Positions 1,940-45,242 of a stretch of 64,000 bases of DNA are shown here, piece by piece. The stretch is taken from contig CAZTKR010000001.1 of NCBI GenBank assembly GCA_964614115.1, positions 10,614 through 74,613 on the forward strand, given 5' to 3'. Source of the stretch: an uncultured bacterium. Lineage in GTDB: Bacteria; Zhuqueibacterota; QNDG01; DSAB01. Numbering within the stretch: the stretch's first letter is position 1; each line of letters starts with the position of its first letter. The notes under the pieces were generated by a model. That model ran no database searches. It was not told the DNA's origin and saw only the letters and a list, made by a program, of their open reading frames with translations. A program made the translations under genes and the position numbers.

Positions 1940-1958
1940 TTTTGCGTGAGCAAAACCA

Positions 1959-4512: not shown

Positions 4513-4594
4513 TAGGAATCCTCAGACATGCGTATCTAATGTGTAACGGTCAGCGCTGTCGACCAGCATTCAAGATATTGTAATTAAACGGGAT

Positions 4595-7846
<3,252 letters not shown>

Positions 7847-23802: not shown

Positions 23803-23890
23803 GAGATTTTTTTATTACTTTGATTTATGGCATGTCATGAGCCTGCGCCTTTTTTAAGCTCCTGTGAGAAGCAAAGGGAGGGAGAAAAAC

Positions 23891-24973: not shown

Positions 24974-24984
24974 AAACAATACGT

Positions 24985-28170: not shown

Positions 28171-28283
28171 GTCACGAACGAGGATCTTAAGATCTCCGAC
28201 GGCTTTCATACACGTCACACCGAAAGGATAGGATTGATTTTTTCTTATTGATTTATAGGAATTCTTTTTATATGTTTCATACG

Positions 28284-28766
28284 ATGAATGGACGGCAGGA
28301 TTGGATCAAGTTGATCGTCAGTCTGTTGGTTTGCCAGCTGACAGGAGCCATCGGTTCGGTATTCACGCGACCGGCCATATCCCAGTGGTATGTTTTCCTG
28401 CAAAAACCGTCTTTCACACCTCCCAGCGGCGTATTTGCTCCTGTCTGGATTTTTCTGTACCTGTTGATGGGGCTCGCTTTCTTCCTCATCTGGCGCCAGG
28501 GTATCGATAATCAATATGCTAAACGTACCGTTATTTTTTTCATCGGGCAATTGATACTAAACGGCCTATGGTCTATCCTGTTTTTTGGTCTCCGGTCACC
28601 GCTGGCGGGGTTGGTGGATATCCTGCTTTTATGGGTATTGATTGTTATCACAACCTGTCGTTTTTATAGAATATACCGCACAGCTGGACTGCTGATGTTG
28701 CCCTACATTGTTTGGGTGAGTTTTGCGGCTGTTTTGAATGGAAGCATCTGGCTTCTTAACCGGTAA
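28284..28766 (+). CDS. tspO: TspO/MBR family tryptophan-rich sensory protein
   Basis: Five TM helices, Trp-rich, length ~160 aa from ATG 28284. The track ORF starts at TTG 28248 (ATG 28272 is also possible). Confidence 0.85.
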   Translation: MNGRQDWIKLIVSLLVCQLTGAIGSVFTRPAISQWYVFLQKPSFTPPSGVFAPVWIFLYLLMGLAFFLIWRQGIDNQYAKRTVIFFIGQLILNGLWSILFFGLRSPLAGLVDILLLWVLIVITTCRFYRIYRTAGLLMLPYIVWVSFAAVLNGSIWLLNR

Positions 28767-28808
28767 CGAGGACTGAAATATACGTAATAGAATCGAAAGG
28801 AGAAGAGA

Positions 28809-29291
28809 ATGGCCAACGTACTTAAAGTGATCGATGTGGTCGATATCGGGATCGAAAAGGAGAAGGCACGGCGCGATTTCTATGATCGGGTGTCGCAGCA
28901 TTTTGAGGACGAAGAGATGAAGAGCCTGTTTACCCGGCTCAGAGATTGGGAAGACGCCCATATTAAAAAATTTCACCTGATACGGAATACCGTGGAGAGC
29001 TCTCCAACCGTCGAAACGTATCCGGGTGAACTGCAATCTTATATGGATGCCCTGGTAGACGACATGCTGTATTCGAAAGTATCGCCCGAATCGTTCAGTG
29101 CCAATGTAAAAACACCCATAGACGCCATCAATTATGGGATCGGGTTCGAGAAGGACGCCATCATGCTCTTCATGGAATTATCGGGCTATGTTGAGTCGAA
29201 GGACAAGGAGGCCATTCAAGAATTGATGGGAGAGGAGAGGCAGCATATCGTTTATCTGATAAAGCTTCGCAAGAAGTTGGCCGGTTCATAA
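28809..29291 (+). CDS. Ferritin-like (rubrerythrin-type diiron) domain protein
   Basis: 160 aa. Two E-x-x-H motifs (EDAHIKKF, EERQHIVYL) in a four-helix-bundle-like context. Good RBS GAAAGGAG. Confidence 0.6.
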   Translation: MANVLKVIDVVDIGIEKEKARRDFYDRVSQHFEDEEMKSLFTRLRDWEDAHIKKFHLIRNTVESSPTVETYPGELQSYMDALVDDMLYSKVSPESFSANVKTPIDAINYGIGFEKDAIMLFMELSGYVESKDKEAIQELMGEERQHIVYLIKLRKKLAGS

Positions 29292-29654
29292 CGGGCTTTT
29301 TTGCGATGCCCATGACTCCCCGGTTCCAGTCCCGCAATACCGGGGTCATAGGTCACGAGCGTGCATGGTGAGCCGCGCACCTCGGACGGTTCCTTCCCGA
29401 AATTCAAGGTCTGAATGCATTCTGTACGGAATTCCATTTTCGCTTCGAGTATCTAAAATACAAGGATGACATTTTTGTCCGGCGATGACTCAAGAATTAT
29501 TAGTAAAAGCTTTATTCGAATACGATAAGACGGTGCGTTCGATGCATTCGTTTTTTTAAGAGACCTTATGTATGTCGGTTTTAATAAAAGCACGACCCGG
29601 TGGGACACACCTCAGAACCCATACAATAATAATATAGAGAGGAATGAAGAGGAT

Positions 29655-32300
29655 ATGCGAATGAAACGACCGTTGATGTGTCTTTTTTTATGGATGTGGA
29701 TTCTTTCTTTTTATTCGATTGCACCCGATGTTTCTTCGGAGGAGAAACAAGAAACGACACCGATTTTTGTGACGGCCTGGCTGAAAGCAGGGCCCGTCAC
29801 CGTCCGTATGCCGGTATTCCACGATACAAAGAATATCAAAGGAGAGGTATTCGGTCTTAAGGAATTATTACGATTCGACGATACCGATACAGAATCGTGG
29901 TGGCCCACGATAGGTGGGCCGTTTCCGTGGTCGGGGATGTGTGATCGGGTGTGGAGCGAGGTGCTGTGCGATACGCATGGCGTGATGCTGGAATCGGAAA
30001 GGGGGGTCGAATCCCCGGAGATAGCGTTTCTGGCAACGTACATTCGGGCCGGCCGATTTGCCGAGGCCACGCTGGAGATATCCGGGTATCATCTGTTTCG
30101 AGCGTTTCTCGACGGCAACATGGTGTTGGAGAAAGCCTCTGCCCAAAAGCCGGCAGATGACAGGGCCTCCGTGAAGGCCAAGAAGCTTTCCAAGCAAATA
30201 AAACTGGAAGCAGGCGTCCATCTGCTTCTGGTCAAGGCCATGAAAGATCCCGATTGTCAGGCGCCCTGGGTAGTCAAGGCGACGTTGAGGATTCCAGTCA
30301 ACCATGAAGATGCATTAACTGTCGGAACTCAGCCGCGCCAGGTCATGACCATCCGGCACATGATGGACGGTCCCAAGGTCCGTAGCGTGTCCATCTCATC
30401 CGACGGAAAATTAGTCGCCGTGTCGATGCAGCAGTCGCAGCCTCCCAGCGATGATGCCGAGTCCTGGATTGAACTGCGGCAAACCGAGGACGGCGGCCTT
30501 GTCCAGACCTTCCGGGGAGGCATGGCGCTTTCCCAAATTCAGTGGTCGCCCGTTGGACGGCGGCTTTCCTACATAAGTTCGGAAAAAGAGAAAAAGACAT
30601 TATGGATCATGGATGTGGATAAGGGCACGAGTATTCCTTTATTGAAGGATGTCGAGGATTTGGGGGATTACACGTGGTCGCCGGCCGGGGATTTTCTCAT
30701 TTATAGCATCACAGAAGAGCCGAAAGAGGACAAGACCGGCCTGAAACGGCTGGAGGGCATGCCCGACCGATGGCCGTGGTACAGGGAACGTCATTTCCTG
30801 TACCGAGTGAACGTGGCCGACGGAACCCGGCAGAGGCTCACGGCAGGCCGGCTGTCCACGAGTCTCAACAGCGTCCATCCCGATGGCAGCCGTTTGTTGT
30901 TCTCCCGCTCCATCTACGATTACACGGAGCGCCCGTACAGTAAAACGGAGTTCTTCGTCCTGGACCTGAACACGCTATCCCTGGATACCCTGTTTGTCGA
31001 CCGATGGGCACAGACGGCCCAGTGGTCGCCCGACGGGAAACAGTTGCTGGTAACCGGCGGTCCGATGTGCTTCGATGGGATCGGCAAAAACGTGCCCGAC
31101 GGAAGGATTCCCAACGATTACGACACCCAGGCTTTTCTGTACGATTTGGAGACCGGTCGTGCGGAGCCCATCACCAAAGAATTCGACCCCTCCATCAACC
31201 AGGCTGTATGGAGCCAAAGCGAATCCTGTATCTATTTCAATACCACGGATCGTTCGTATAAGAGACTCTATCGGCATGATGTCGAAAAGAAGAATTTTGA
31301 GATGATGGATACCGGGTTCGATGTTCTGGACGAATTCGATATTGCCGAAGATAGGCCCGTGGCCGCGGCCATTGGATCCGGAGCCTCTCTTCCGCCCAGG
31401 GCCTCCGTGCTGGACCTGCGCAGGAGACGAACCCGTACCCTCATCAATCCTGGGGAGAAGGATTACCAGCATGTTCATTTTGGCCAGGTAGAGCGCTGGA
31501 CGTTCACCAACACGCGCGGAACAGAAATCGACGGACATGTTTACTATCCCCCGGAATTCGATCCTCAAAAAAAATACCCGTGCATCGTGTACTACTACGG
31601 CGGCACCAGCCCGGTGACCCGGGATTTTGGCGGACGGTATCCCAAGGAGATTTGGGCGGCCAACGGGTATGTGGTATACGTTCTGCAGCCCAGCGGTGCC
31701 ACGGGATATGGTCAGGCCTTTTCAGCCTTTCACGTGAACGACTGGGGGCAGATCGCGGCGGATGAGATCATCGACGGAACAAAGCAGTTCCTGGAAGCCC
31801 ATCCCTTTATCGATGCATCGCGGATGGGTTGCATCGGTGCTTCGTTCGGGGGGTTCATGACCATGCTGCTGACCACTCGCACGGATATGTTTGCCTCGGC
31901 CGTGGCCCATGCCGGAATCAGTTCGATTTCCAGCTACTGGGGCGAGGGATACTGGGGATATCTCTACAGTGCTGCGGCCACGGCGGAAAGCTTTCCCTGG
32001 AACCGCAAGGACATTTACGTGGATCAGAGTCCCTTGTTCCACGCAGACAAAATCACAACGCCCCTGCTCCTGGTTCACGGCGCGTCGGACACCAACGTAC
32101 CGCCGGGCGAAAGCCGGCAGCTGTACACGGCCCTGAAATTGCTGGGAAGGGACGTCGAGCTGGTCGAGGTCGAGGGGCAGAACCATCATATCATGCAGTA
32201 CAATAAACGCATTCGGTGGACCAAGACAATCATGGCATGGTTAGACCGATGGCTGAAAGATCAACCCCAGTGGTGGGAGGATCTGTATTCCGATAAATAG
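29655..32300 (+). CDS. S9 family serine peptidase with TolB-like beta-propeller (second copy)
   Basis: Signal peptide MRMKRPLMCLFLWMWILSFYS. Propeller region. C-terminal hydrolase domain with GASFGGF nucleophile motif, Asp and His. I place the start at 29655. The track ORF begins at 29568. Confidence 0.9.
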   Translation: MRMKRPLMCLFLWMWILSFYSIAPDVSSEEKQETTPIFVTAWLKAGPVTVRMPVFHDTKNIKGEVFGLKELLRFDDTDTESWWPTIGGPFPWSGMCDRVWSEVLCDTHGVMLESERGVESPEIAFLATYIRAGRFAEATLEISGYHLFRAFLDGNMVLEKASAQKPADDRASVKAKKLSKQIKLEAGVHLLLVKAMKDPDCQAPWVVKATLRIPVNHEDALTVGTQPRQVMTIRHMMDGPKVRSVSISSDGKLVAVSMQQSQPPSDDAESWIELRQTEDGGLVQTFRGGMALSQIQWSPVGRRLSYISSEKEKKTLWIMDVDKGTSIPLLKDVEDLGDYTWSPAGDFLIYSITEEPKEDKTGLKRLEGMPDRWPWYRERHFLYRVNVADGTRQRLTAGRLSTSLNSVHPDGSRLLFSRSIYDYTERPYSKTEFFVLDLNTLSLDTLFVDRWAQTAQWSPDGKQLLVTGGPMCFDGIGKNVPDGRIPNDYDTQAFLYDLETGRAEPITKEFDPSINQAVWSQSESCIYFNTTDRSYKRLYRHDVEKKNFEMMDTGFDVLDEFDIAEDRPVAAAIGSGASLPPRASVLDLRRRRTRTLINPGEKDYQHVHFGQVERWTFTNTRGTEIDGHVYYPPEFDPQKKYPCIVYYYGGTSPVTRDFGGRYPKEIWAANGYVVYVLQPSGATGYGQAFSAFHVNDWGQIAADEIIDGTKQFLEAHPFIDASRMGCIGASFGGFMTMLLTTRTDMFASAVAHAGISSISSYWGEGYWGYLYSAAATAESFPWNRKDIYVDQSPLFHADKITTPLLLVHGASDTNVPPGESRQLYTALKLLGRDVELVEVEGQNHHIMQYNKRIRWTKTIMAWLDRWLKDQPQWWEDLYSDK

Positions 32301-32313
32301 AAGGAGGCACACG

Positions 32314-33696
32314 ATGAAGCAGAGACGGATCATCATCACCAGCGCGCTTGTCATCATCCTGATGGTATCGTCCGTTTTCGGTTTGGTGTTCGACAAGTCC
32401 GAGTATGCTGCCCGGAGACATAAATTCATGGAAACGATTCCCGACGGTGTGGCCATTCTTTTGGGTGCTCAGCTGCCCGGAAGCTACATGGAATACTATC
32501 AGAACAACGATTTTATGTACTTCACCGGCGTGGAGATTCCAGATGCCATACTCCTCGTGGACGGCATACGGAAGGAGAGCATTCTCTTTTTTACGATTAG
32601 CGAGGGTGCGGCTCGCAACGAGGGGATTTCGCTGGACCTGGTACGCAACCCGGAAGAAGTGACCGGCATCGAAAAGATTCTTCCCGTCGAGCAGTTCTCG
32701 TCCTACTTGAACCGGCTGAGTTCGAGCACAACGGTTTTTTACACACCGTACAAGCCCGAAGAGCTGATGCGGGAGTGCACCAACGAGAAATTCAGGAGGC
32801 TCCAGCAGAACATCACGCTCAACGACTGGGACGGGAGGCTGACCCGCGAGCTTCAATTCGTTCAATTACTGAGGGATCGGTTTCCCTATGTCGAGGTCAA
32901 GGATTGCTGCCCGATGATCTGGGAGCTCCGGATGATTAAATCACCGGCCGAGATCGCCCTGCTGCGCAGGGCCGGTGAAATCGCCGTGAAGGCCCACATC
33001 GAAATGATGAAGACCACGCGGGTGGGCATGCACGAGTGGGAGCTGGCCGCTCTGTATGAATACTACTGTAGAAAGGAGGGCGCCCAGGACCTGGCCTACT
33101 ACTGCATCATCTCCTCGGGCGAGAACCATCCCTATTTTCATTATTATAAACATGACCGCCAGCTCCAGGATGGTGATTTTCTCGTGGTAGATGTAGGGCC
33201 GGATGTCGATTATTACGATATCGATATCACGGTATCCTATCCTGCCAACGGCCAGTTTACGCCAAGACAAAAAGAGATATACGAAGCGGCCAAAGCCGTG
33301 CATGAGGTGAGCATGGAGTGCTACAGGCCAGGCGTTACTCTGGAGGAGGTCGAAAAAACGGTCGTAGACGTACTCACAAAGAGGGGATTCGACCTGTCGA
33401 AACCGATTTTCCAACACCGGGGCATGCGGGGGCGTTTCGGCCATTACGTGGGCATGGCCGTCCACGATGTGGGGGGCAGTCCCACAGTCCTCAAGCCGGG
33501 CATGGTGATCGCCAACGAACCCCTGGCTGCGTTTCCCCAAGAAAACCTGGGCGTCCGGGTGGAGGATACGATCCTGATCACCGAGGACGGTTACGAGATT
33601 CTTTCGGATGGTCTCCCCAGGGAAGTGGAAGAGATAGAAGCTTTGATGAAGCAGGATGGTGTGGTTCAAGTCCTGAAAAAGGCCGCGTTGTATTGA
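32314..33696 (+). CDS. Xaa-Pro aminopeptidase / M24 family metallopeptidase (exported)
   Basis: N-terminal signal or anchor. AMP_N-like domain. M24 pita-bread metal ligands (DVGPDVDYYDIDITV, HYVGMAVHDVGG, E...E). AAGGAGG RBS. Confidence 0.85.
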   Translation: MKQRRIIITSALVIILMVSSVFGLVFDKSEYAARRHKFMETIPDGVAILLGAQLPGSYMEYYQNNDFMYFTGVEIPDAILLVDGIRKESILFFTISEGAARNEGISLDLVRNPEEVTGIEKILPVEQFSSYLNRLSSSTTVFYTPYKPEELMRECTNEKFRRLQQNITLNDWDGRLTRELQFVQLLRDRFPYVEVKDCCPMIWELRMIKSPAEIALLRRAGEIAVKAHIEMMKTTRVGMHEWELAALYEYYCRKEGAQDLAYYCIISSGENHPYFHYYKHDRQLQDGDFLVVDVGPDVDYYDIDITVSYPANGQFTPRQKEIYEAAKAVHEVSMECYRPGVTLEEVEKTVVDVLTKRGFDLSKPIFQHRGMRGRFGHYVGMAVHDVGGSPTVLKPGMVIANEPLAAFPQENLGVRVEDTILITEDGYEILSDGLPREVEEIEALMKQDGVVQVLKKAALY

Positions 33697-33818
33697 ACGG
33701 ACAACGATCCATCGTCCAACCGTAGATTGAATGGAGAGCAATAGCGAGTTTCATCTGTTCAGCCAGGGAGATTTTGATAAGCTTAGGAAAATAGGATTCT
33801 AAAAAGGAGGGTAAGAAC

Positions 33819-35120
33819 GTGATAAACCGGCGAGCATTCTTGGGGGCCATCGGCAGACCGGCGTCAGCAGCGTTTATCGTGGCGGCACTGGATACCATCG
33901 GTATGCATCGGGCGCTGGAAGCCATCGCAGATTATCCGGGCAGTCCGGAGGAGATAGCGGGGGATGAAGCCTTCTGGTTCGAGGTACAGCAGGCGTTTAC
34001 CGTGGACCGCAGCCTCATCAATCTCAACAACGGGGGCGTCTGTCCATCACCCGCCATCGTCCAGGACGCTATGAAGAAACATCTGGATTTTTCAAACAAG
34101 GCCCCGACATACACGATGTGGCAGATTCAAGAACCGCAGAAGGAGGCTGTCCGCAAACGTCTGGCGCGTATGTTCGGTTGCGATGCCGAAGAGATCGCCC
34201 TGACGCGGAACGCCTCAGAGGGTCTCCAGATCTGTCAATTCGGAATGGATTTTCACAAAGGGGATGAATTCTTAACGACGACTCAGGATTACCCCAGGAT
34301 GATCACGACGTTTCGACAGAGGGAGCGCCGCGAGGGTCTGGTCCTGAAGCAGTTCTCCATCCCAGTGCCCGCAGAAGACCCGGATGAGCTCGTTTCGCTC
34401 TTCGAGCAGAACATCACGAAACGAACGAAAGTCATACTGATCTGTCATGTGATTAACCTCACGGGTCAGATCATGCCCGTGAAGGCCATTGCCCAGATGG
34501 CCCGGAAGAAGGGCATTCCCGTGCTGGTAGATGGCGCCCATGCCTTTGCCCATTTCGAATTCAAGCATGAAGACCTGGATTGTGATTACTACGCCACGAG
34601 CCTGCACAAATGGCTGTGTGCGCCCCACGGCACGGGATTGCTTTACGTGCGGAGGGGAAAGATAAAAGACCTCTGGCCGCTGATGGCCGCCCCGGAGGAC
34701 ATGGACGATGATATCCGTAAATTCGAGGAGATCGGTACTCACCCGGCGGCTCCGTATCTGTCCATTGCCGAGGCATTGACGTTCCACCAGGGAATCGGAA
34801 TCAAGCGGAAGGAGGCGCGACTGCGGTTTCTCCGGGATTACTGGGCCAAACGGCTTCTTCAGCACGATCGCGTTCGGCTGCATACCAGTCTGAAACCAAA
34901 CTTCTCCTGTGGCCTGGCCAACATGCAGATCGAGGGCATCGATACGGTGGATTTGGTCGAATTCCTATGGGAGAAGTACAAGATCATCGTGGTGCCCATC
35001 AAACATCCCGAATTCGAGGGCATCCGTGTCACGCCCAACGTGTATACGACGCTGGAAGAGCTGGACCGGTTCTGCGATGCCATAGAAGGCGTGATCAAAA
35101 ACGGATTGCCCGTATCATGA
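33819..35120 (+). CDS. Tat-exported class V aminotransferase-fold PLP enzyme (isopenicillin-N epimerase / cysteine desulfurase-like)
   Basis: GTG start behind AAGGAGGG. Twin-arginine motif NRRAFLGA. PLP lysine motif SLHKWL. Fold-type I class V features. Confidence 0.8.
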   Translation: MINRRAFLGAIGRPASAAFIVAALDTIGMHRALEAIADYPGSPEEIAGDEAFWFEVQQAFTVDRSLINLNNGGVCPSPAIVQDAMKKHLDFSNKAPTYTMWQIQEPQKEAVRKRLARMFGCDAEEIALTRNASEGLQICQFGMDFHKGDEFLTTTQDYPRMITTFRQRERREGLVLKQFSIPVPAEDPDELVSLFEQNITKRTKVILICHVINLTGQIMPVKAIAQMARKKGIPVLVDGAHAFAHFEFKHEDLDCDYYATSLHKWLCAPHGTGLLYVRRGKIKDLWPLMAAPEDMDDDIRKFEEIGTHPAAPYLSIAEALTFHQGIGIKRKEARLRFLRDYWAKRLLQHDRVRLHTSLKPNFSCGLANMQIEGIDTVDLVEFLWEKYKIIVVPIKHPEFEGIRVTPNVYTTLEELDRFCDAIEGVIKNGLPVS

Positions 35121-35153
35121 CATCATGAACATCCAAAACGTGAAGGCGTCAGA

Positions 35154-36755
35154 ATGCGAAAGTTTATCTTATTGTTGGTGGCGGTTGCCATCGTTTGTGT
35201 GTGGGCCCTGACATGCTCCCTCCTGCCTGTCAAGTATGACATTCTCATTAAGAACGGCGTGGTGATCGACGGGAGCGGTAAGCCCCGGTACACGGCCGAT
35301 GTCGGTATAAACGGCGGTAAGGTGGTGGCCATCGGTTCTCTGTGGGCGTTGATTACTGAGATCGACATCGATGCCTCTGGCAAGGTTGTCTGCCCGGGAT
35401 TCATCGACCTGCATACCCACGCAGAACGCAACATCCTGGAAATTCCGGCCGTGGAGAATTACACGCGTCAGGGTGTGACGACGGTTGTGGGCGGGAATTG
35501 CGGTGGGTCTCCATTTCCCGTGGGCGAGTTCATGCAGTCCGTCGAGGAGGAAGGAATCACCCTGAACCTGATCCTCCTGGTCGGTCACAATACCGTGCGT
35601 GAGCGGATCATGGGAACGGAGAATCGCGTGCCCACCAAAGACGAATTGGTGATGATGAAGGAACTGGTCGCCCAGGCCATGGACGAGGGCGCTTTTGGTT
35701 TTTCCACGGGTTTAAAATACGTTCCCGGGAGCTACGCTTCCACGGATGAGGTCGTCGCCCTGGCCGGAGTGGCCGCCTCCTACGGTGGATTCTACGCCAC
35801 CCACATGCGGGACGAGGGATTGAAGATCATAGAATCCGTACAGGAAGCCATCGAGATTGGACGCCGGACAAACGCACCGATCCAAATCTCGCATCACAAG
35901 GTGGTGGGCAGGGGAATGTGGGGTCGCAGCGAAGAGACGCTCCGGCTCATCGATGAAGCTCACGAACAGGGCCTCGACATCACGTTCGATCAGTATCCGT
36001 ACACGGCCACGAGTACCGGGCTGACCGTTCTCTTTCCCGCATGGTCTCTGGCCGGCGGACCCGACAGCATCAGAATACGGCTGGACGATCCCCGTACAAG
36101 GAAGAGGATCAAGGAGGGTATCGAATTCAACATCCTTCATGACCGCGGCGGGGGCGATCCGGCCAGTGTCGTGGTCGTTTCCCATCGGACCGATTCGACG
36201 CTGGCCGGGAAAGACTTGGCCGAGATCACCAGAATGCGGGGTCGCAGGCCCACGGTGGCCAATGCCGCGGAAACGCTGATGGAGCTCGTGTACGAGGGCG
36301 GGGGCAGCGGCATTTACCATTGTCTCAGCGAGGACGATGTGACCCGGATCATGCGTCATCCTCTGGGCACCGTGGGCTCCGATGGCAGCACGGTCCTGTT
36401 CGGAGAGGGCATCGTGCATCCGCGGAATTACGGGACATTCCCTCGGGTTCTGGGCCGGTACGTCCGTGAGCAGAGCGTACTCACACTGGAGGAAGCCATC
36501 CGGAAGATGACGTCCCTGCCTGCAGAACGTCTGGGGCTGGAGGATCGTGGGCTGATACACAAGGGCAGCCGGGCCGACGTGGTCGTGTTCGATCCCAAGA
36601 CAATCCTGGATAATGCCACGTTCCTGGACCCACATCAGTATTCCGCTGGGATTGAATATGTGATCGTCAACGGTCAGATGGTCATCGGAAATGGCGTGTA
36701 TACGGGAAAAAGGCCAGGATATGTCTTAAGAAAAACCAAGACGATAATTAAATAA
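35154..36755 (+). CDS. N-acyl-D-amino-acid deacylase (D-aminoacylase), amidohydrolase 3 family
   Basis: 533 aa. Signal peptide. CPGFIDLHTHAE metal motif. D-aminoacylase-specific insertion domain architecture. Confidence 0.85.
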   Translation: MRKFILLLVAVAIVCVWALTCSLLPVKYDILIKNGVVIDGSGKPRYTADVGINGGKVVAIGSLWALITEIDIDASGKVVCPGFIDLHTHAERNILEIPAVENYTRQGVTTVVGGNCGGSPFPVGEFMQSVEEEGITLNLILLVGHNTVRERIMGTENRVPTKDELVMMKELVAQAMDEGAFGFSTGLKYVPGSYASTDEVVALAGVAASYGGFYATHMRDEGLKIIESVQEAIEIGRRTNAPIQISHHKVVGRGMWGRSEETLRLIDEAHEQGLDITFDQYPYTATSTGLTVLFPAWSLAGGPDSIRIRLDDPRTRKRIKEGIEFNILHDRGGGDPASVVVVSHRTDSTLAGKDLAEITRMRGRRPTVANAAETLMELVYEGGGSGIYHCLSEDDVTRIMRHPLGTVGSDGSTVLFGEGIVHPRNYGTFPRVLGRYVREQSVLTLEEAIRKMTSLPAERLGLEDRGLIHKGSRADVVVFDPKTILDNATFLDPHQYSAGIEYVIVNGQMVIGNGVYTGKRPGYVLRKTKTIIK

Positions 36756-36845
36756 AAACGGGGAATGGTCGTCACCAACGAGAACGCCGATCGGTGGAAT
36801 CGGCCTTTATGTAGATCATTCCGAATAAATCACTCAAGGAGTATA

Positions 36846-37970
36846 ATGATGAATTCAACTTTCCAGCCCTTTATCATGGAACGCGTGATGTCCAAGTGGG
36901 AGAACGTCGTGGAGTATAACCTGTCGGAGAGCGGTGTACATCCGATGACGCTTCATGAATTGATGCAAGATCCGAAGGACATCGAGAAGCTCTTAAATAC
37001 CGAAATCAACTACCCCCAGGCCAACGGCATCGTAGAACTGAGAGAAAGGATTGCGGCCATGTATCCGGGCAGCACACCGGATAACATTCTGGTCACGGTG
37101 GGTGCGGCCGAGTCCAACTTCATCACGATGCAGACCGTACTGGACCCCGGCGACGAGGTGGCCATCATGCTGCCCAATTACATGCAGGTCTGGGGCGTGG
37201 CCAAGAACAGGGGACTGAAGATTCAGGAATTTCGACTCAAGGAAGAAAAGGGTTGGGCCCTGGAAGACGATTGGGAACGGGCCGTGACGACGAACACAAA
37301 GCTCATCGCCGTGTGTAATCCCAACAATCCCACGGGGTACATCCTGACGGATAAAGAGATGGATGCCGTGGTGGCAGCGGCGGAGAGGGTGGGTGCCTGG
37401 ATCCTGGCCGACGAGGTCTACGCCGGGGCCGAGCGGACTACGGATGTGGTGACGCCCTCGTTCTGGGGTCGTTACGATAAGGTACTGGCCATAGGCAGTA
37501 TGTCCAAAGCCTACGGCCTGCCGGGATTGCGTTTGGGTTGGGTTGTGGGGCCGGCCGACACGGTGGACGACATATGGGCACGGCACGAGTACGTGGCCAT
37601 CAGTACGACGATGCTATCCAATCACATCACAGCGTACGCGCTATCATCCGAAGTGCTGCCGCGCGTCCGCCAACGGGCCCGTGATTATATCCGGCGTGGG
37701 TATCCCATCCTGGAAGACTGGATGAAAGGCCACGGCGATACCTTCAGCACAGTACAGCCCCAGGCGGCGGCTATCGCCTATGTCCGGTACCATCTGGATA
37801 TCAATTCCACGGAGTTGATCGAACGGTTGATGCACGAGAAGAGTGTGTTTATCGTACCCGGCGATCATTTCGGCATGGACCGGTATCTGCGCATCAGCTT
37901 CGGTCTGGAACCCGACTTCCTGAGAGCGGGGCTGGATCGCATTCACGAGCTGATCGTCGAACTGGGGTAG
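36846..37970 (+). CDS. Class I/II (aspartate-family) aminotransferase
   Basis: PLP-lysine motif SMSKAYGLPGLRLGW, plus NPNNPTG. I place the start at ATG 36846, behind AAGGAG. The track ORF begins at 36765. Confidence 0.85.
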   Translation: MMNSTFQPFIMERVMSKWENVVEYNLSESGVHPMTLHELMQDPKDIEKLLNTEINYPQANGIVELRERIAAMYPGSTPDNILVTVGAAESNFITMQTVLDPGDEVAIMLPNYMQVWGVAKNRGLKIQEFRLKEEKGWALEDDWERAVTTNTKLIAVCNPNNPTGYILTDKEMDAVVAAAERVGAWILADEVYAGAERTTDVVTPSFWGRYDKVLAIGSMSKAYGLPGLRLGWVVGPADTVDDIWARHEYVAISTTMLSNHITAYALSSEVLPRVRQRARDYIRRGYPILEDWMKGHGDTFSTVQPQAAAIAYVRYHLDINSTELIERLMHEKSVFIVPGDHFGMDRYLRISFGLEPDFLRAGLDRIHELIVELG

Positions 37971-38035
37971 GATAGAAGAGAGCGCGGACGCATGGGCGTC
38001 GTTCGGCATGCGCCATCCAATCATAAAGGGGAGCG

Positions 38036-39007
38036 ATGGAATATATCTCACTGGGCCGTTCGGGTCTGAAGGTGAGCCGGCTTTGCCTTGGGACGATGAA
38101 TTTTGGCCCTCATACGTCTGAAAAAGACAGCTTCGCCATCATGGACAAGGCCCTGGAGCTGGGCATCCAGTTTTTCGATACGGCCAACGTGTACGGGGGG
38201 AAGAAGGGCGAGGGTGTGACGGAACAGATTATCGGGAGATGGCTGGCTCAGGGAGGGGGCCGCAGAGAGCGCATCGTCCTTGCCACCAAGGTCTATGGTT
38301 CCATGGGAGACGGCCCCAACGACAGAGGGCTCTCGGCCTACCATATACGCCGGGCCTGCGAGGAGAGTCTGAAACGGCTTCAAACAGATCACATCGATCT
38401 ATATCAGATGCACCACGTGGATCGCACCACGCCCTGGGAAGAGATCTGGCAGGCCATGGAGCAACTCGTTGGCGAAGGTAAGGTGATCTATGTGGGCAGC
38501 AGCAATTTCGCCGCCTGGCACATCGCCGAGGCCAACAGCGTGGCTGCCCAGCGGCACTTCTTGGGCTTAATCTCCGAGCAGAGTCTGTATAATCTGACCG
38601 CCCGGACGGTGGAACTGGAAGTCATTCCCGTGTGCCGTGCCCTGGGATTGGGCGTCATCCCATGGAGCCCCCTGGCCAGTGGATTCCTGGGAGGGATGAC
38701 AAAAGAAATAAAAACAGTGCGGCGGATGGAAGAGAATGTACAGCAGATGATGAAGATACATCGTCAGAGTCTGGAAGCATATGAGACGTTTTGTGCAGGA
38801 CTCGGCGAGTCGCCGGCCAACGTGGCTCTGGCCTGGCTGCTGCACCAGACGGGCGTCACGGCACCCATCATCGGCCCCCGCACGATGGAACAACTGGTGG
38901 GATGCATGGGATCGTTGGACATCGCCCTGTCCGAAGAAGATTTGATGAAATTGGATGCCATCTGGCCGGGGCCCGAGGGTCAGGCACCGGAGGCTTATGC
39001 GTGGTGA
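38036..39007 (+). CDS. Aldo/keto reductase
   Basis: 323 aa. AKR catalytic tetrad context (D...Y...K...H) with FFDTANVYGG and YQMHHVD motifs. Confidence 0.9.
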   Translation: MEYISLGRSGLKVSRLCLGTMNFGPHTSEKDSFAIMDKALELGIQFFDTANVYGGKKGEGVTEQIIGRWLAQGGGRRERIVLATKVYGSMGDGPNDRGLSAYHIRRACEESLKRLQTDHIDLYQMHHVDRTTPWEEIWQAMEQLVGEGKVIYVGSSNFAAWHIAEANSVAAQRHFLGLISEQSLYNLTARTVELEVIPVCRALGLGVIPWSPLASGFLGGMTKEIKTVRRMEENVQQMMKIHRQSLEAYETFCAGLGESPANVALAWLLHQTGVTAPIIGPRTMEQLVGCMGSLDIALSEEDLMKLDAIWPGPEGQAPEAYAW

Positions 39008-39102
39008 AAGAAACATCCCCAGAAGCCAAACGTCCATTACATGCCCTTCCCTCCCTCGTTTCTTACAGTGGATGCCAATCATAGGAAGAGGAAATTGAAC
39101 CC

Positions 39103-39498
39103 ATGAAAATCATCGAAACGACGAACGCGCCGTTGCCCGCAGGACACTATTCGCAGGGCATCGTCCATGACGGTCTGGTCTTTGTCTCCGGTCAACTGCC
39201 CGTGGACCCGGAGACGGGAGAGAAGGTGACCGGTTCTGTGGAAGAGGAGACGGACAGAGCATTGAAAAACGTGGCCGCTGTTCTGGAAGCGGCCGGGAGC
39301 GGTCTTCATCGGGTGATCAAGACGACGGTCTACGTGTCGGATATCACGCTTTGGGATCGTGTCAATCAGGTCTATGCCCGTCATTTCGGCGAGCACCGGC
39401 CGGCCCGGGCCGTGGTTCCCACCAAACCACTCCACTTTGGGTTTCATGTGGAGATCGAAGCCGTGGGTGTCGTGGAGACCGGGAGTGAGACCGCATGA
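39103..39498 (+). CDS. ridA: RidA family reactive-intermediate (enamine/imine) deaminase
   Basis: 131 aa, YjgF/RidA fold. ETTNAPLPAGHYSQG...VFVSGQ. Conserved Arg near the C-terminus. Confidence 0.9.
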   Translation: MKIIETTNAPLPAGHYSQGIVHDGLVFVSGQLPVDPETGEKVTGSVEEETDRALKNVAAVLEAAGSGLHRVIKTTVYVSDITLWDRVNQVYARHFGEHRPARAVVPTKPLHFGFHVEIEAVGVVETGSETA

Positions 39499-40496
39499 AG
39501 GGGCGTCCCGACATCAAAGACATTCGTGAAGCCCACGACAGGATTCGGCCTTACATCCACAGAACGCCCGTGCTCACGTGTGCGTCCATCAATGCCATGG
39601 TCGGAGCACGCGTTTTTTTTAAGTGTGAGAATTTTCAAAAAGTCGGTGCCTTTAAGTTTCGGGGCGCCACGAATGCTGTCTTTAGCCTGTCGGACGAGGA
39701 GGCTAACAGAGGGGTGGTGACGCATTCATCGGGCAACCATGCTGCTGCATTGGCCTTGGCCGCGAGGAATCGGGGCATTACCGCCCGGATTGTCATGCCG
39801 TCCAACGCACCGCCCGTGAAAATAGCAGCCGTGGAAGGATACGGCGGGAACATCACGTTTTGCGAGCCCAAGCCTCAGGCCAGGGAAGAAGCAGCGGATC
39901 GCATCGTAAAAGAGACGGGCTCGACGCTGGTTCATCCCTCCAATGACGTGTCTGTCATCACGGGTCAGGGGACGACGGCCTTGGAATTCATCGAGACTGC
40001 GGGAGATTTGGATTTTCTCCTCACGCCGTTGGGGGGCGGGGGCCTGCTTAGCGGAACCGCCTTGACCGTGCGGGGCCTGAAGGCGAGGATCAAGGTCGTC
40101 GGATGCGAGCCCAAGAACGCCGATGATGCCTATCGTTCCATACGTGCCGGGCGAATCCTGCCGTCGGTGAATCCCGATACCATTGCCGACGGTCTTCGGA
40201 CGTCTCTGGGTGACAACACGTTTCCCATCATTCGGGACCTCGTGGATGATATCGTGCTGGTCAGCGAGGAGGAGATCGTGGCTGCTATGCAGACGATTTT
40301 TCAGAGGATGAAGATTGTTATCGAACCTTCTTCGGCCGTACCTGTGGCTGCCGCTTTATTCGAAAAAATACGGGTGACGGATAAAAACGTTGGTATCATT
40401 CTGTCCGGGGGAAATGTCGATTTCAGCCGATTCTTCCAGTCGATGCTCGGCAATCCTCCTCCACAAACGCCCCGGAAAAACGATTCACACCGATAG
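39495..40496 (+). CDS. Fold-type II PLP enzyme: serine/threonine dehydratase or serine-racemase-like
   Basis: PLP lysine motif FKFRGA, Gly-rich loop GGGGLLSG, ~330 aa with no ACT domain. The start ATGA overlaps the ridA stop, indicating translational coupling. Confidence 0.85.
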   Translation: MKGRPDIKDIREAHDRIRPYIHRTPVLTCASINAMVGARVFFKCENFQKVGAFKFRGATNAVFSLSDEEANRGVVTHSSGNHAAALALAARNRGITARIVMPSNAPPVKIAAVEGYGGNITFCEPKPQAREEAADRIVKETGSTLVHPSNDVSVITGQGTTALEFIETAGDLDFLLTPLGGGGLLSGTALTVRGLKARIKVVGCEPKNADDAYRSIRAGRILPSVNPDTIADGLRTSLGDNTFPIIRDLVDDIVLVSEEEIVAAMQTIFQRMKIVIEPSSAVPVAAALFEKIRVTDKNVGIILSGGNVDFSRFFQSMLGNPPPQTPRKNDSHR

Positions 40497-40541
40497 CGTG
40501 TGAGCGCCTCCAACCCATTTAAACGTCCCTGGGAGGGAATC

Positions 40542-40880
40542 ATGTCTTATAAAATCACGTACTACAACGATATCGCCATCGTTACGGCAAAGGGCAGTTT
40601 GATGGGAGGCAAGGAAACGACGGATTATCATCAACTGGTCAAGGATTTGATATCCGGCAAGAACATTAAGATTATTGCCGACCTGGCCCAAGTGAAGTGG
40701 ATCAACAGCAAAGGATTGGGGATGCTGATGGCATGCTTCACGTCGTGCAAAAACGCGGGTGGCGATTTTAAAATCGTAGGGGCTACAGAAAAGGTCAAGA
40801 GCCTGCTGATGATGACCAAACTGCTAACGATCTTCGAATCCTTCGATATCATTGACGAGGCTGCGGCCAGCTTCAAGTAA
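40542..40880 (+). CDS. STAS-domain protein (anti-sigma-factor antagonist, SpoIIAA-like), orphan copy 1
   Basis: 113 aa. DLAQVKWINSKGLGMLM contains the phosphorylatable-Ser position. Paralog of the gene at 56010-56348. I place the start at ATG 40542, behind GGGAGGG. Confidence 0.8.
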   Translation: MSYKITYYNDIAIVTAKGSLMGGKETTDYHQLVKDLISGKNIKIIADLAQVKWINSKGLGMLMACFTSCKNAGGDFKIVGATEKVKSLLMMTKLLTIFESFDIIDEAAASFK

Positions 40881-41064: not shown

Positions 41065-41092
41065 TTGACATTTGCCGAATATTTTATAAGAT
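41065..41092 (+). promoter_or_regulatory. Candidate sigma-70-type promoter (TTGACA, 16-nt spacer, TAAGAT)
   Basis: Consensus -35 hexamer and an acceptable -10, in a 490-bp non-coding region about 280 nt upstream of the formamidase gene. Confidence 0.3.
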
Positions 41093-41369: not shown

Positions 41370-42392
41370 ATGAAAACGAGGCATTCTTTATGGATTTTCT
41401 TCGGGATTTTTCTTTATGGAATCACGCTTTTCGGGCTTTCCTGTACGGGTTTACCGGAGGATACGGGCAAACCGAGAACGGTTCCCAAGGCCGAGTATTT
41501 TTTGACCAGGGATCAGACCCACAACAAATTCAGCCGGGCCATACCGCCCGTTCTGAGAGTTCCATCGGGGGCCGTGATCGAAGCGGAGACAGAAGAAGCT
41601 TCGGATGCGCAGATACTTATCGATTCCGATGTGGAGGATGTCGTCACCATGAAATCAGACCTCATTCATCCCATCACAGGCCCGGTTTATGTGGAAGGGG
41701 CCCTGCCGGGAGACGTACTGGCTGTGACGCTCCACAAGATCGAGATCGGCGATTACGGATGGGTGGCCATCTCCCCCGGTTTCGGGTTACTGGCGGATGA
41801 GTTCACGGAACCCTATCTCAGGACCTACGCGCTGGGACGGAATGCCACAGAAGTGTCGTTCTCGAATAAAATCACCATCCCGCTAAAACCCTTTCCAGGC
41901 GTCATGGGTGTTGCGCCGGATACCGACGAGATGCTCTCCACGATTCCGCCGAGGGCCAACGGCGGCAACATGGACGATCCCCATCTCGTGGAAGGGGTTA
42001 CCGTCTATTTTCCCGTTTTTGTGGAAGGCGCCCTTTTTTCTCTGGGAGATGCCCATTCGGTTCAGGGTGCCGGGGAGGTTTGCGGCACGGCCATCGAAAC
42101 GCCGATGAAAATAACGTACGAAGCGAACGTCATCAAGGGCAAGACGTACGTTCGAGAACCGCAGTACGAAACAGACGACACCTATGCCGTGACGGCTTTT
42201 GGGGCGACCATCGACGAGGCTGCCAGAAAAGCCTTGCGTTTTATGATCGATTATCTGGAGGCAGAGCATGGCATGGACCGCACCGAAGCCTATGTCCTGT
42301 GTTCCCTGGCCGGAGACTTGAAGATCGCCGAGGTCGTGGACGTGCCCCACATGCTGGTTTCCATGCATATCTCCAAAGGGATTTTACGCTAA
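41370..42392 (+). CDS. Acetamidase/formamidase family amidase (FmdA_AmdA), lipoprotein
   Basis: 340 aa. Lipobox LFGLSC. FmdA/AmdA family sequence features. Strong RBS GGAGGGAG. Confidence 0.85.
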   Translation: MKTRHSLWIFFGIFLYGITLFGLSCTGLPEDTGKPRTVPKAEYFLTRDQTHNKFSRAIPPVLRVPSGAVIEAETEEASDAQILIDSDVEDVVTMKSDLIHPITGPVYVEGALPGDVLAVTLHKIEIGDYGWVAISPGFGLLADEFTEPYLRTYALGRNATEVSFSNKITIPLKPFPGVMGVAPDTDEMLSTIPPRANGGNMDDPHLVEGVTVYFPVFVEGALFSLGDAHSVQGAGEVCGTAIETPMKITYEANVIKGKTYVREPQYETDDTYAVTAFGATIDEAARKALRFMIDYLEAEHGMDRTEAYVLCSLAGDLKIAEVVDVPHMLVSMHISKGILR

Positions 42393-42526
42393 AGACAGAT
42401 TGTGCTCGGACGATAACACGATGAGGGTAACCGTCAAATTCATCGGGGTACAGAACATAAAAAGTCGTGCAAGACAGAGTATCGAATCAGGCGATCGAAG
42501 AATCGTTCATCCTACAAAGGGTAAAG

Positions 42527-43948
42527 ATGACTAAGAACGGGGCAGCACATCCAGACGATGGTGTTCGATTGAGAATGTTCGGTGGAATATGGGGAGGTCT
42601 GTTTCCCCTGGTTGTACTCATCGTCGTTTTGTTCGTACTCTCCATCGGGGGCAAGGGTGGCGTTTCGGCATTCTGGACGGCGGGCTGGCTGGCGCTGGTG
42701 GCGGGGATGTTTCTGGCCAGGGACAAGGGGGCCTACTGCCAGACACTAATGAAGGGCCTGGGCGATAAGAACGGCATCGTCATCGTGACGGCGTGGCTGT
42801 TCGCCGGTGTCTTTGGGAAGATAATGGTGGCCGGGGGATTGGTCGACGGATTGGTGTGGTTTGGACTGAAGACAGGGGCTGCGGGCTCGCTGTTCTCGCT
42901 CATCGCGTTTGTGTCGGCCATGCTTTTTTCCATGGGTACGGGCACGAGTACGGGCACGGTACTGTCGCTGGTGCCTGTCCTCTATCCTGCCGGGGTTTTT
43001 CTCGGTGCGAGTCCAGCGATGCTGGCCGTGGGAATCCTGTCCGGAGCCGCGTTTGGTGATAATCTGGCACCCATTTCCGACACCACCATCGTTTCGGCAT
43101 TTACCCAGGAAGCGGAGATGCGGGACGTGGTCAGGAGCCGTTTTCCCCTGGCCATGACCGCGGCGCTGATGGCCGCGGCCGTGATTTTCATCTTTGGAGG
43201 CGGAGGAACCGTGAAAGACTTTCCCGAGATTCAGGCACGGATGCATCCTGCGGGACTATTGATGCTCATCCCTTTCATCATCGTGGTGGTGTCTGCCCTG
43301 TCCGGCCGGCATCTCGTGGAATCGCTGATCTACGGGAATGTGTCTGCTGCGGCTACAGGCATCCTCAACGGACAGACGAAACTGAGCACGCTTTTCTCCA
43401 TACCCGCGGAGCGTGGAGAATCCACGGGAATCATCCAAGACGGAATCAGCAGTGTGGTGGGTGCGGTGGTTTTTGCTCTGTTGATGCTGGCCATCACCCA
43501 GGTTTTGGTGGACAGCGGTGTACTGGAAAGGATACTGAGGGCGTTCGAGAGAGCATTCGTCAAGACGGTGAGAAGGGCAGAGTTGTCCATCATCTTCGTG
43601 ACGATTCTGGCCTCCATTCCCATCGCTTCCAACGCGGCAGCCGAGCTTCTCGTGGGCCCGGGCCTGGTGAAGCCGTTGGGGAAGAAGTTCAACCTCGCCG
43701 CGGCCAGACGGGCCAACCTGATGGACTGCTCCGTGTGTACGATTTTTTATACGATCCCCTGGGCCATCGCCGTGGTGGTCTGGTACGCGGCCGTGCAATC
43801 GGCGGCGGACGCGTTTCAGATACCAAGCTTGCCCTTCGGTGCGTCCTTCTTGAATCCCTATTCCTGGGCGCTTCTGGCCGTACTCCTCTTTTCTGCGGTC
43901 ACCGGCTGGAACCGGGCATTCGATGGAACCGCTCCTGAAGGCGAGTGA
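42527..43948 (+). CDS. Na+/H+ antiporter NhaC family transporter
   Basis: About 12 TM helices with NhaC-family features. The start is uncertain: the track ORF begins at 42467, and ATG 42527 or 42575 is more likely. Confidence 0.75.
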   Translation: MTKNGAAHPDDGVRLRMFGGIWGGLFPLVVLIVVLFVLSIGGKGGVSAFWTAGWLALVAGMFLARDKGAYCQTLMKGLGDKNGIVIVTAWLFAGVFGKIMVAGGLVDGLVWFGLKTGAAGSLFSLIAFVSAMLFSMGTGTSTGTVLSLVPVLYPAGVFLGASPAMLAVGILSGAAFGDNLAPISDTTIVSAFTQEAEMRDVVRSRFPLAMTAALMAAAVIFIFGGGGTVKDFPEIQARMHPAGLLMLIPFIIVVVSALSGRHLVESLIYGNVSAAATGILNGQTKLSTLFSIPAERGESTGIIQDGISSVVGAVVFALLMLAITQVLVDSGVLERILRAFERAFVKTVRRAELSIIFVTILASIPIASNAAAELLVGPGLVKPLGKKFNLAAARRANLMDCSVCTIFYTIPWAIAVVVWYAAVQSAADAFQIPSLPFGASFLNPYSWALLAVLLFSAVTGWNRAFDGTAPEGE

Positions 43949-44144: not shown

Positions 44145-45242
44145 ATGAGACGAAGAGACTTTTTAAAGACGACACCCTCCGCCAGCTTGGCGGTCGCATT
44201 GGGAGCAAAGAAAGGACGCACACGTCAGCAAGAGAGCAAGCCGCTCGTCATCGATGGCATGGCCGAGATACGGGTGAACTATCCCATGAGCCTGATCTCC
44301 GAGGTGTTGGACAGCGGCACGAATGTGGTGAGAATATCATTGGGGAGCCCCTTGCCGCCGGATACGGCGTATCAGATCGTACTGGACACGTATGCGGAAT
44401 ATGAGAGGCACATTAAGGTTCACGGCAACTATCTGGTGAAGGCGTCCTGCGTGGCCGATATCGATCAGGCAAAGAAGGAAGGACGCCTGGCACTGATGTA
44501 TTATTTCCAGAATGCGACGCCCATCGGATTTGACCTCGACAACATCGATTTTTTCTACAATCTGGGTATATCCAGCATACAGCTGACGTATAACACGAGA
44601 AACCTGGTGGGGGACGGGTGTATGGACAGGACGCATTCCGGGCTCTCGGAGTTTGGTCTGAATGTCATCGATCGTATGAACAGCCTGAACATGCTCGTCG
44701 ATTTATCCCACGCGAGCATGGCCACCATGGCGGACGGGATAAAACACTCCAAACAAACGGTTATCGTGGGACACTCGGGATGCAGAGCAGTATACGATCA
44801 TCCCAGGAACACGACGGACAAAAATATCCGGGCGCTGGCAGACAAGGGCGGTGTCATCGGCATGTACCAGATCAATCCCTTCCTGGGACCAAAACAACGA
44901 AACAGTTTGGAAGATTATTTGAACCATATCGATCATGCGGTAAACGTTGGAGGAATCGACCATGTGGGCATCTCCAGCGATCGGGAGCACATGCGGATCC
45001 CGGACACGGAGGAGGAAAGAAGAAGACTCGAGAAGGAGATGGAGGGCAAGAGCACGAAGGGTGTTTTCCGGGGACCGGATAAGAACAAGATAGATTGGCC
45101 CTTTTTCATCGAGGCGCTAAACGGCCCAAGACGTATGGAAACCGTCCGGGCCGGACTCGAAAAACGCGGATACAACGCCCGTGAGATCGAGAAGATCATG
45201 GGTCAGAATTTCTACAGGGTTTTCAAAGAAGTGATCGGATGA
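44145..45242 (+). CDS. Tat-exported membrane dipeptidase (peptidase M19, renal dipeptidase family)
   Basis: Twin-arginine motif MRRRDFLK. M19 metal-ligand regions (HxD near the N-terminus, DLSHAS, GHSGCRAV). Confidence 0.9.
   Translation: MRRRDFLKTTPSASLAVALGAKKGRTRQQESKPLVIDGMAEIRVNYPMSLISEVLDSGTNVVRISLGSPLPPDTAYQIVLDTYAEYERHIKVHGNYLVKASCVADIDQAKKEGRLALMYYFQNATPIGFDLDNIDFFYNLGISSIQLTYNTRNLVGDGCMDRTHSGLSEFGLNVIDRMNSLNMLVDLSHASMATMADGIKHSKQTVIVGHSGCRAVYDHPRNTTDKNIRALADKGGVIGMYQINPFLGPKQRNSLEDYLNHIDHAVNVGGIDHVGISSDREHMRIPDTEEERRRLEKEMEGKSTKGVFRGPDKNKIDWPFFIEALNGPRRMETVRAGLEKRGYNAREIEKIMGQNFYRVFKEVIG

Follow-up and report, generated by a model that had tools for sequence, protein, structure and literature searches.

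The window analyzed here, a 64,000-nucleotide (nt) stretch of contig CAZTKR010000001.1 from an uncultured bacterium of the Zhuqueibacterota, carries at positions 32314 to 40496 seven consecutive plus-strand genes that an earlier note had read as one coherent block for the catabolism of peptides and D-amino acids. These genes are designated g1 to g7; g0 is the S9 peptidase gene upstream, g8 to g10 lie downstream, and L numbers denote the loci used for comparison. With families called from Pfam, from NCBIfam models with curated cutoffs, and from sequence searches of the PDB, all seven open reading frames (ORFs) were found exactly where they had been listed, and the superfamilies assigned to them were borne out. 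Minus-strand ORFs across the block (171 to 307 amino acids [aa]) had no Pfam family matches and were treated as shadow ORFs.

The first of the seven genes, g1 (32314 to 33696, +), encodes a protein that resembles M24B Xaa-Pro aminopeptidases and carries an N-terminal signal or anchor (Pfam Peptidase_M24, 4.9e-51, plus AMP_N). Its nearest structures were Xaa-Pro aminopeptidases (PDB 3IG4 and E. coli AMPP, 180 to 200 bits), and its score on the NCBIfam PepP model was 204 bits, under the cutoff of 465. Directly upstream, g0 (29568 to 32300, +) encodes an exported S9 serine peptidase of the prolyl-oligopeptidase/dipeptidyl-peptidase family (Pfam Peptidase_S9, 1.8e-43). The g0 N terminus is hydrophobic following an internal Met, and the true start is probably at about 29655 (MRMKRPLMCLFLWMWIL...). 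A gap of 13 nt, which contains AAGGAGG, separates the end of g0 from the start of g1.

The second gene, g2 (33819 to 35120, +), encodes a class V pyridoxal phosphate (PLP) enzyme (Aminotran_5, 1.5e-41) whose N terminus, MINRRAFLGAIG, contains the twin-arginine motif RRAFLG, also present in one orthologue. The motif proposed as a twin-arginine translocation (Tat) signal is thus real, and export itself is a sequence prediction. The best NCBIfam match was PvdN, at 162 bits against a cutoff of 650, and the PDB structure of PvdN scored 118 bits; no pyoverdine (pvd) genes were found among the window genes scanned with Pfam. Because of that score and the lack of pvd genes, g2 is not considered a member of the PvdN family. 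PvdN itself, a PLP enzyme of the periplasm exported through Tat, is a decarboxylating tailoring enzyme; it turns the glutamate side chain of pyoverdine into succinamide (PMC6206403). It is the nearest characterized relative of g2 and its nearest solved structure. Like PvdN/PtaA (PMC6206403), g2 combines a twin-arginine signal, the class V PLP fold, and the PLP lysine (in SLHKW, aligned with the PvdN lysine) with the lack of a desulfurase Cys; unlike them, its orthologues come from uncultured bacteria (metagenome contigs from several projects) and have no conserved partner.

A role for g2 as a cysteine desulfurase in Fe-S assembly, which the earlier note had named as the outcome that would undo its interpretation, was rejected. 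In alignment with the desulfurase 5VPR, the segment GHHC faces IKH...P of g2, leaving no Cys at the SufS-type catalytic position; the protein bears a Tat signal; and all desulfurase models scored far under their cutoffs. The family and structure matches gave zero support for an isopenicillin-N epimerase or for epimerase activity. A role of g2 in the use of D-amino acids would be plausible. Orthologues at 63 to 80% identity in 20 metagenome loci had none of the block genes nearby; their neighbors included valS, DUF1295, and esterase genes and, twice, a gene for a DAO-family oxidoreductase. In the latter two loci, from marine/sediment metagenomes (L088, 11348 to 12550; L090, 11326 to 12525), no more than about 30 nt separate the Tat-type PvdN-like gene from a downstream gene for an FAD oxidoreductase of the DAO family (about 400 aa). 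This adjacency hints at amine or D-amino-acid chemistry; the pairing is not kept in other loci.

The third gene, g3 (35154 to 36755, +), encodes a D-aminoacylase-family amidohydrolase (PDB 1M7J, 306 bits; 3GIP, 299 bits). It resembles the D-aminoacylase 1M7J from end to end, at about 300 bits, and alignment with 1M7J and 1RJP showed that DLHTH, GNCG, ATHMRDEG, ISHHK, and GSDG are all kept, with the HxH, Cys, His, and His metal ligands and the catalytic Asp intact. The difference from 1M7J lies in a 26-residue hydrophobic extension ahead of the domain, an N-terminal signal or anchor by which g3, too, is predicted to be exported; this adds to what had been noted before. Relatives of g3 reportedly hydrolyze L-Xaa-D-Xaa dipeptides. 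The sugar de-N-acetylase OngB (PDB 9KB1) also matched g3, at 229 bits, and since the D-aminoacylase family includes carbohydrate de-N-acetylases such as OngB (PMC12017989), a D-amino-acid substrate for g3 is not guaranteed. Orthologues of g3 at 62 to 64% identity had beta-lactamase-family, GGT, M14, NhaC, and asparaginase_2 genes as neighbors, the NhaC-family gene (Pfam PF03553) lying near the orthologue in L115.

The fourth gene, g4 (36843 to 37970, +), encodes a cytoplasmic class I aminotransferase-fold PLP enzyme of PRK07324/GntC-like type (Aminotran_1_2, 4e-46). Although its ORF opens at 36765, the start is most likely at 36843, because AAGGAG lies upstream, the alignments of relatives begin there, and the identical contig L081 calls a protein of 373 aa. 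All NCBIfam scores fell under their cutoffs: 279 bits for PRK07324 (476), 270 for GntC (415), and 216 for VioD (391). In the PDB, 3OP7 scored 189 bits and 8FFT 166 bits. The product of g4 shares the fold of the cyclodehydratases GntC (guanitoxin) and VioD (viomycin) and of PRK07324 (PDB 3OP7), at 216 to 279 bits, but stays under each of the curated cutoffs and differs in its partners, which are dehydratases and cyclodeaminases of catabolic type and not biosynthetic genes.

Those partners emerged from a scan of 185,579 species genomes, from which the best 80 of 384 relatives of g4 were taken (61 to 78% identity). These 80 belonged to the Chloroflexota, Acidobacteriota, Bacteroidota, Planctomycetota, Gemmatimonadota, and other phyla. 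Within 500 nt of the g4 orthologue, 35 of 70 loci carried a fold-type II PLP (PALP) dehydratase, mostly Thr-dehydratase/EutB-like and 36 to 40% identical to g7; within 3 kb, 23 of 70 carried an OCD-family cyclodeaminase (PRK08291, 421 bits, above the cutoff of 408). The neighbors as a whole were of catabolic type: Thr-dehydratase-like, cyclodeaminase, ABC transporter, and glycine cleavage genes. From these genomic contexts, the pairing of aminotransferase and dehydratase is robust across phyla, and it is the one linkage of the block that recurs so widely. Among loci L003 to L080 (for example, L031 at 1307 to 4513, L011, L030, L037, and L046), the g4 orthologue recurred in a module with a PALP enzyme of Thr-dehydratase/EutB-like type and a cyclodeaminase of PRK08291 type. 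Amino-acid ABC transporter genes often lay alongside, as did a regulator-like gene without an NCBIfam match, and three loci also had a gene for a GntG-family PLP aldolase. No described pathway for the aminotransferase-PALP-cyclodeaminase module was found.

The fifth gene, g5 (38036 to 39007, +), encodes a cytoplasmic NADPH-type aldo/keto reductase (AKR; Aldo_ket_red, 1.9e-74), with AKRtyl, the tylosin reductase of subfamily AKR12D, as its nearest structure (385 bits). It is followed by g6 (39103 to 39498, +), a RidA enamine/imine deaminase that scored above the curated cutoff of its subfamily (TIGR00004, 132.1 bits against 106.25) and has, near its C terminus, an RPARAVV (PAR) motif whose position was judged by eye. 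In the RidA of Salmonella and of E. coli, Arg105 is needed for imine hydrolysis. The stop of g6 overlaps the start of g7 in an ATGA that is real in the sequence (GCATGAAG), as had been reported.

The product of g7 (39495 to 40496, +) is a fold-type II PLP enzyme like serine racemase and beta-hydroxyaspartate dehydratase (PALP, 3.4e-80). The motifs AFKFRG, THSSGNHA, and GGGGL are present, as are the PALP and PLP-lysine features of serine racemases and Ser/Thr dehydratases. Serine racemases in the PDB scored 320 to 345 bits (top, 5CVC at 345), and serine-racemase-like enzymes can act on D-Ser. On NCBIfam, BhcB (441 bits, cutoff 550) was followed by PRK07048, a threo-3-hydroxy-L-aspartate ammonia-lyase (390 bits, cutoff 452), so that g7 is a member of neither. 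Orthologues at about 70% identity are common and often stand alone; several of those named in their source come from Zixibacteria metagenome-assembled genomes (MAGs).

A RidA gene beside and overlapping that of a PLP-dependent, Ser/Thr-type dehydratase represents an established pairing (PMC3565831), and in this respect the earlier note was right. As in the IlvA/TdcB-RidA/TdcF paradigm (PMC3565831), a RidA that scores above its cutoff lies directly upstream of, and overlaps, a fold-type II dehydratase, and the same role, hydrolysis of the released enamine/imine, is expected of g6. The differences are that g7 falls in the serine-racemase/3-hydroxyaspartate-dehydratase branch and is neither IlvA nor TdcB, that the pair here comes with an AKR and with an aminotransferase of PRK07324 type, and that other tdc or ilv genes are lacking.

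Beyond g7 follows, after 45 nt, g8 (40542 to 40880, +), which encodes a STAS-domain protein of the anti-sigma-antagonist type (Pfam STAS, 4.3e-8). It lies in the reading frame of g7 with one TAG between them (window 39495 to 40880), and two stops intervene in L085 (about 8761 to 9243). In L113 (10458 to 11840), the dehydratase and STAS domains form one unbroken 460-aa ORF (PALP plus STAS), and a GAF-SpoIIE phosphatase is encoded next. The join may reflect the fusion of an enzyme with a partner-switching domain, either ancestral or particular to a lineage, or else an assembly artifact. The next two genes are g9 (41370 to 42392, +), for an exported acetamidase/formamidase-family amidase (FmdA_AmdA, 4.1e-54), and g10 (42467 to 43948, +), for an NhaC-family membrane transporter (Na_H_antiporter, 1.3e-22, with a weak ArcD-like match).

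Comparison with more than 110 related loci did not bear out the expectation that this gene order is kept in related genomes. The full set occurred only at identities of at least 92%, in L081 (100%) and L085 (92 to 97%), and subsets only at 65 to 82%. L108 (71 to 82% identity) had Sua5, an M24 pseudogene, g2, g4, g7, GAF-SpoIIE, STAS, and FmdA; its M24 gene (4348 to 5062) has decayed to three fragments (residues 12 to 86, 190 to 256, and 354 to 460), with the flanking Sua5 and class V genes intact. L113 (67 to 76%) had g3, g4, g6, and g7 fused to STAS, followed by SpoIIE, FmdA-like, and NhaC genes. Smaller subsets were g2, g4, and g7 in L001 (69 to 80%); g4, g6, and g7 in L002 (75 to 78%); the AKR, RidA, and g7 genes in unrelated surroundings in the 5.2-Mb genome L112 (65 to 67%); and g7 alone in L109, L110, and L111 (69 to 73%). 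In particular, g3 was missing from L108, L001, and L002 and present in L113, and g5 was missing from L108, L113, L001, and L002, the AKR-RidA-dehydratase arrangement being seen once more, independently, in L112. Among relatives that bear a name, the closest were MAGs of Zixibacteria, KSB1, and Marinimicrobia, at 56 to 70% identity.

Each of g1, g2, g3, g5, and g6 can thus be dispensed with in some relative, since each is missing or decayed somewhere at 65 to 82% identity. The linkages that recurred were aminotransferase-dehydratase, aminotransferase-RidA-dehydratase, AKR-RidA-dehydratase, and, in L113, D-aminoacylase-aminotransferase. Sua5, STAS, and SpoIIE genes, which are not catabolic, were as syntenic as the genes of the block, and much of the shared order therefore looks like inheritance by descent. 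The STAS gene g8 was kept at 76% identity in L108 and L113, and g10 at 71% identity downstream in L113.

The borders of the block are arbitrary, and the seven genes are no distinct unit, because the S9 gene lies 13 nt upstream and the STAS, FmdA-like, and NhaC genes downstream are equally syntenic. Sizeable gaps first appear ahead of the probable S9 start (about 360 nt) and past the STAS gene (489 nt). The latter holds a promoter-like TTGACA-16-TAAGAT (41065 to 41092, matching 10 of 12 positions of the -35/-10 elements); since a gap of this length contains such a good match, g9 is probably a separate transcription unit. Overall, sigma-70 promoter-like sites were at chance level (13 found, 13.2 expected). 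Terminator-like sites were enriched, nearly all of them inside coding sequence, and intergenic folds were modest; between 29.6 and 40.9 kb, a stretch of nine codirectional genes, the scan found no convincing intrinsic terminator, and none convincingly between the genes of the block. A single long transcript across 29.6 to 40.9 kb is possible on these signals.

The predicted compartments of the products are mixed. In a reading of N-terminal sequences, hydrophobic or twin-arginine N termini were found on g0 to g3, and also on g9, an M19 dipeptidase, and others; none was found on g4 to g8. The S9 and M24 peptidases, the class V PLP enzyme, and the D-aminoacylase are predicted to be exported, and the aminotransferase, AKR, RidA, and dehydratase to be cytoplasmic. 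The block itself has no transporter gene; the closest candidate outside it is the NhaC-family gene g10, whose product may be an importer joining the exported hydrolases to the cytoplasmic enzymes.

The theme of hydrolysis is not confined to these genes. The thematic enrichment that the earlier note had seen in 8 kb is real but extends over about 45 kb (15.7 to 61.6 kb), where, by Pfam, 14 of 31 genes encode peptide or amide hydrolases: two S9 peptidases, five amidohydrolases, Amidase_3, M24, formamidase-like, M19, M28, tricorn-like S41, and GGT. Almost all of the 14 have signal-like or twin-arginine N termini by inspection of the N-terminal sequence. Every family-supported gene in this stretch is on the plus strand, and gaps of 12 to 90 nt are frequent across the whole window. 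Since the strand bias is global and the tight spacing widespread, neither feature singles out the seven genes, and with nearly all window genes on the plus strand, shared orientation is no evidence for an operon. The order of mnmE, mnmG (gidA), rsmG (gidB), and mfd at 547 to 7846, together with a cumulative GC skew that climbs monotonically across the window, suggests that the window is origin proximal, on the leading strand just past the replication origin. A tRNA scan across the window found none.

The reading that we favor, with a probability of roughly 0.55, is that three units lie side by side within a region of secreted hydrolases and do not constitute one pathway for one substrate. It draws on gene presence, families, catalytic residues, targeting motifs, and synteny patterns as observed. 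Of the single catabolic block first proposed, the gene families, the RidA-dehydratase pairing, and some of the smaller linkages stand; its coherence does not, given the lack of co-conservation, the mixed compartments, and the arbitrary borders.

For these three units, the substrates, any cotranscription, and the passage of metabolites from one unit to another are predicted from sequence. The first unit would be the exported proline-specific peptidase pair, S9 and M24B, trimming oligopeptides outside the cytoplasm. The second would comprise two exported enzymes with independent distributions, namely the Tat-dependent PvdN-like PLP enzyme and the D-aminoacylase-family metallo-amidohydrolase, the latter presumably freeing D-amino acids from N-acyl-D-amino acids. 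The third would be a cytoplasmic module for amino-acid deamination that consists of the class I aminotransferase, the AKR, RidA, and the serine-racemase-like dehydratase. In this module, g7 would remove the beta-hydroxyl group of Ser, Thr, or 3-hydroxy-Asp (the D forms possibly as well as the L forms), freeing an enamine/imine; the translationally coupled RidA would hydrolyze that product to a 2-oxo acid and ammonium, shielding neighboring PLP enzymes; and g4 would move amino groups between the 2-oxo acid and other amino acids derived from peptides. The hydrolases would feed amino acids into this module generically, and the NhaC-type carrier encoded two genes downstream of the STAS gene may import them.

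Several observations weigh against this division into units. The AKR has no explained role in the proposed scheme. The adjacency of g3 and g4 is seen again in L113, and a D-aminoacylase-like gene lies beside the g4 orthologue of the Anaerolineae MAG L020, with 42% identity to g3 and, having no signal peptide, a cytoplasmic product; some coupling of amidohydrolase and aminotransferase may therefore be functional. The losses in L108, L113, and L001, which share the broad lineage of the window, could be secondary and are no proof of functional independence. Finally, the gaps of 13 to 122 nt, the Shine-Dalgarno motifs ahead of each gene, and the lack of terminators are compatible with one transcript from g0 to g8 and so favor the view of a single operon.

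Such an operon, comprising the seven genes and perhaps the S9 gene, would lead from peptides or N-acyl-D-amino acids through D/L-amino acids, epimerized by the class V enzyme, to 2-oxo acids and ammonium. Besides the common strand, the short gaps, and the failure to find strong internal terminators, this idea can call on the fit of every gene to amino-acid or peptide chemistry, the intact active site of the D-aminoacylase, the D-Ser activity known from the serine-racemase family, and the co-occurrence of g3, g4, g6, and g7 in L113 and of g2, g4, and g7 in L108 and L001. We nevertheless consider it unlikely. The full set is restricted to close relatives; g1, g2, g3, g5, and g6 are each missing or decayed in some relative at 65 to 82% identity while the pairing of g4 with g7 persists; and the orthologues of g2 and g3 elsewhere have unrelated neighbors. 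With S9 counted, the products split evenly into four exported and four cytoplasmic ones, which no transporter in the block connects, and the flanking Sua5, STAS, and SpoIIE genes are equally syntenic with no catabolic role. Support for epimerase activity of g2 was not found either, and PvdN, its nearest characterized relative, is a decarboxylating tailoring enzyme (PMC6206403).

A narrower alternative would have g3 to g7 (the AKR being optional) and the NhaC carrier form a dedicated route for scavenging D-amino acids (D-Ser, D-Asp, or hydroxy-Asp) from the N-acyl-D-amino acids or D-residue peptides of dead cell walls, and would at the same time make g2 part of a widespread, uncharacterized class of periplasmic PLP enzymes acting on free amino acids or peptides. 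The two propositions together strike us as rather improbable.

Less likely still is a tailoring or biosynthetic cassette for a nonproteinogenic amino acid or natural product, in which g4 would be a cyclodehydratase of GntC/VioD type, g2 a periplasmic tailoring enzyme of PvdN type, and g5 an aldehyde reductase of AKR12 type. The matches of g4 to GntC (270 bits), VioD (216 bits), and PDB 8FFT (166 bits), of g2 to PvdN, and of g5 to the tylosin reductase AKRtyl point that way, but all scores are far under the family cutoffs, and the resemblance largely mirrors which relatives have been characterized. The scanned genes of the 64-kb window include no nonribosomal peptide synthetase, polyketide synthase, hydroxylase, or export genes, the surroundings are rich in hydrolases, and the neighbors of g4 orthologues are of catabolic type. 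With neither synthetase nor synthase among the scanned genes and every match under its cutoff, we rejected this highly improbable cassette.

A variant of the beta-hydroxyaspartate cycle, in which glyoxylate would be assimilated around a BhcB-like dehydratase and an aminotransferase, is scarcely credible. It resembles bhcABCD in that g7 matches the BhcB family best, with the threo-3-hydroxy-L-aspartate ammonia-lyase next, and in that an aminotransferase adjoins; it differs in that g7 is under both cutoffs, in that neither an aldolase of BhcC type nor an imine reductase of the BhcD/OCD family was found among the Pfam-scanned window genes, and in that RidA, standing in place of the reductase, would be expected to hydrolyze the iminosuccinate that the cycle must reduce. 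The BhcA model was not among the 25 best NCBIfam matches for g4. The cycle was rejected on the score of g7 and the lack of BhcC and BhcD among the scanned genes. Ectoine/hydroxyectoine catabolism, brought to mind by g4 relatives beside EutB- and EutC-like genes and by a weak match of the M24 protein to ectoine hydrolase, was dismissed, with no OCD-family gene in the window, DoeA scores of about 40 bits against cutoffs of about 600, and 258 bits for g7 on EutB against 413.

Several other features of the window were observed. The Tat-signal M19 dipeptidase gene (44145 to 45242), between the NhaC and DUF362 genes, is a recent gain or loss, because it is missing from L085 (12232 to 12518), a relative at about 95% identity. 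Amid the exported hydrolases are a DUF362 protein (45269 to 46513) and a 4Fe-4S dicluster protein (51708 to 52877) with the twin-arginine-type N termini TRREFIKKS and KRREFIKTT, respectively. Between Sua5 and the S9 peptidase gene, a TspO/MBR gene and a small rubrerythrin-like gene (28248 to 29291) lie where G+C falls to 0.47 (28 to 30 kb); this segment is missing from the syntenic relative L108. A fusion of FakA-like (Dak2) and DegV domains is encoded at 24610 to 26751, where the longest ORF shares about 360 nt with the final part of the AI-2E transporter ORF (23864 to 24973); the true start of the fusion is probably further downstream. Lastly, a three-gene minus-strand island contains ADH-like and DeoC-like genes and, at 13989 to 15215 (-), a gene for a 408-aa protein with pentapeptide repeats and a C-terminal TIR domain, which may be a defense or NAD-consuming effector.

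Every component of the locus comes from known families, the logic of RidA and dehydratase is textbook, and the arrangement is another instance of a known catabolic neighborhood; no new mechanism is added. The locus does offer a caution, in that coherence of theme and a common strand do not define an operon. If the reading as three units is true, the window would show a typical gene layout of uncultured protein-degrading bacteria, with secreted peptidases and amidases near the origin beside a small cytoplasmic deamination module. Two of the families encountered may merit separate study: the conserved, uncharacterized family of Tat-exported PvdN-like PLP enzymes and the highly conserved PRK07324-type aminotransferase that in different phyla accompanies fold-type II dehydratases and cyclodeaminases.

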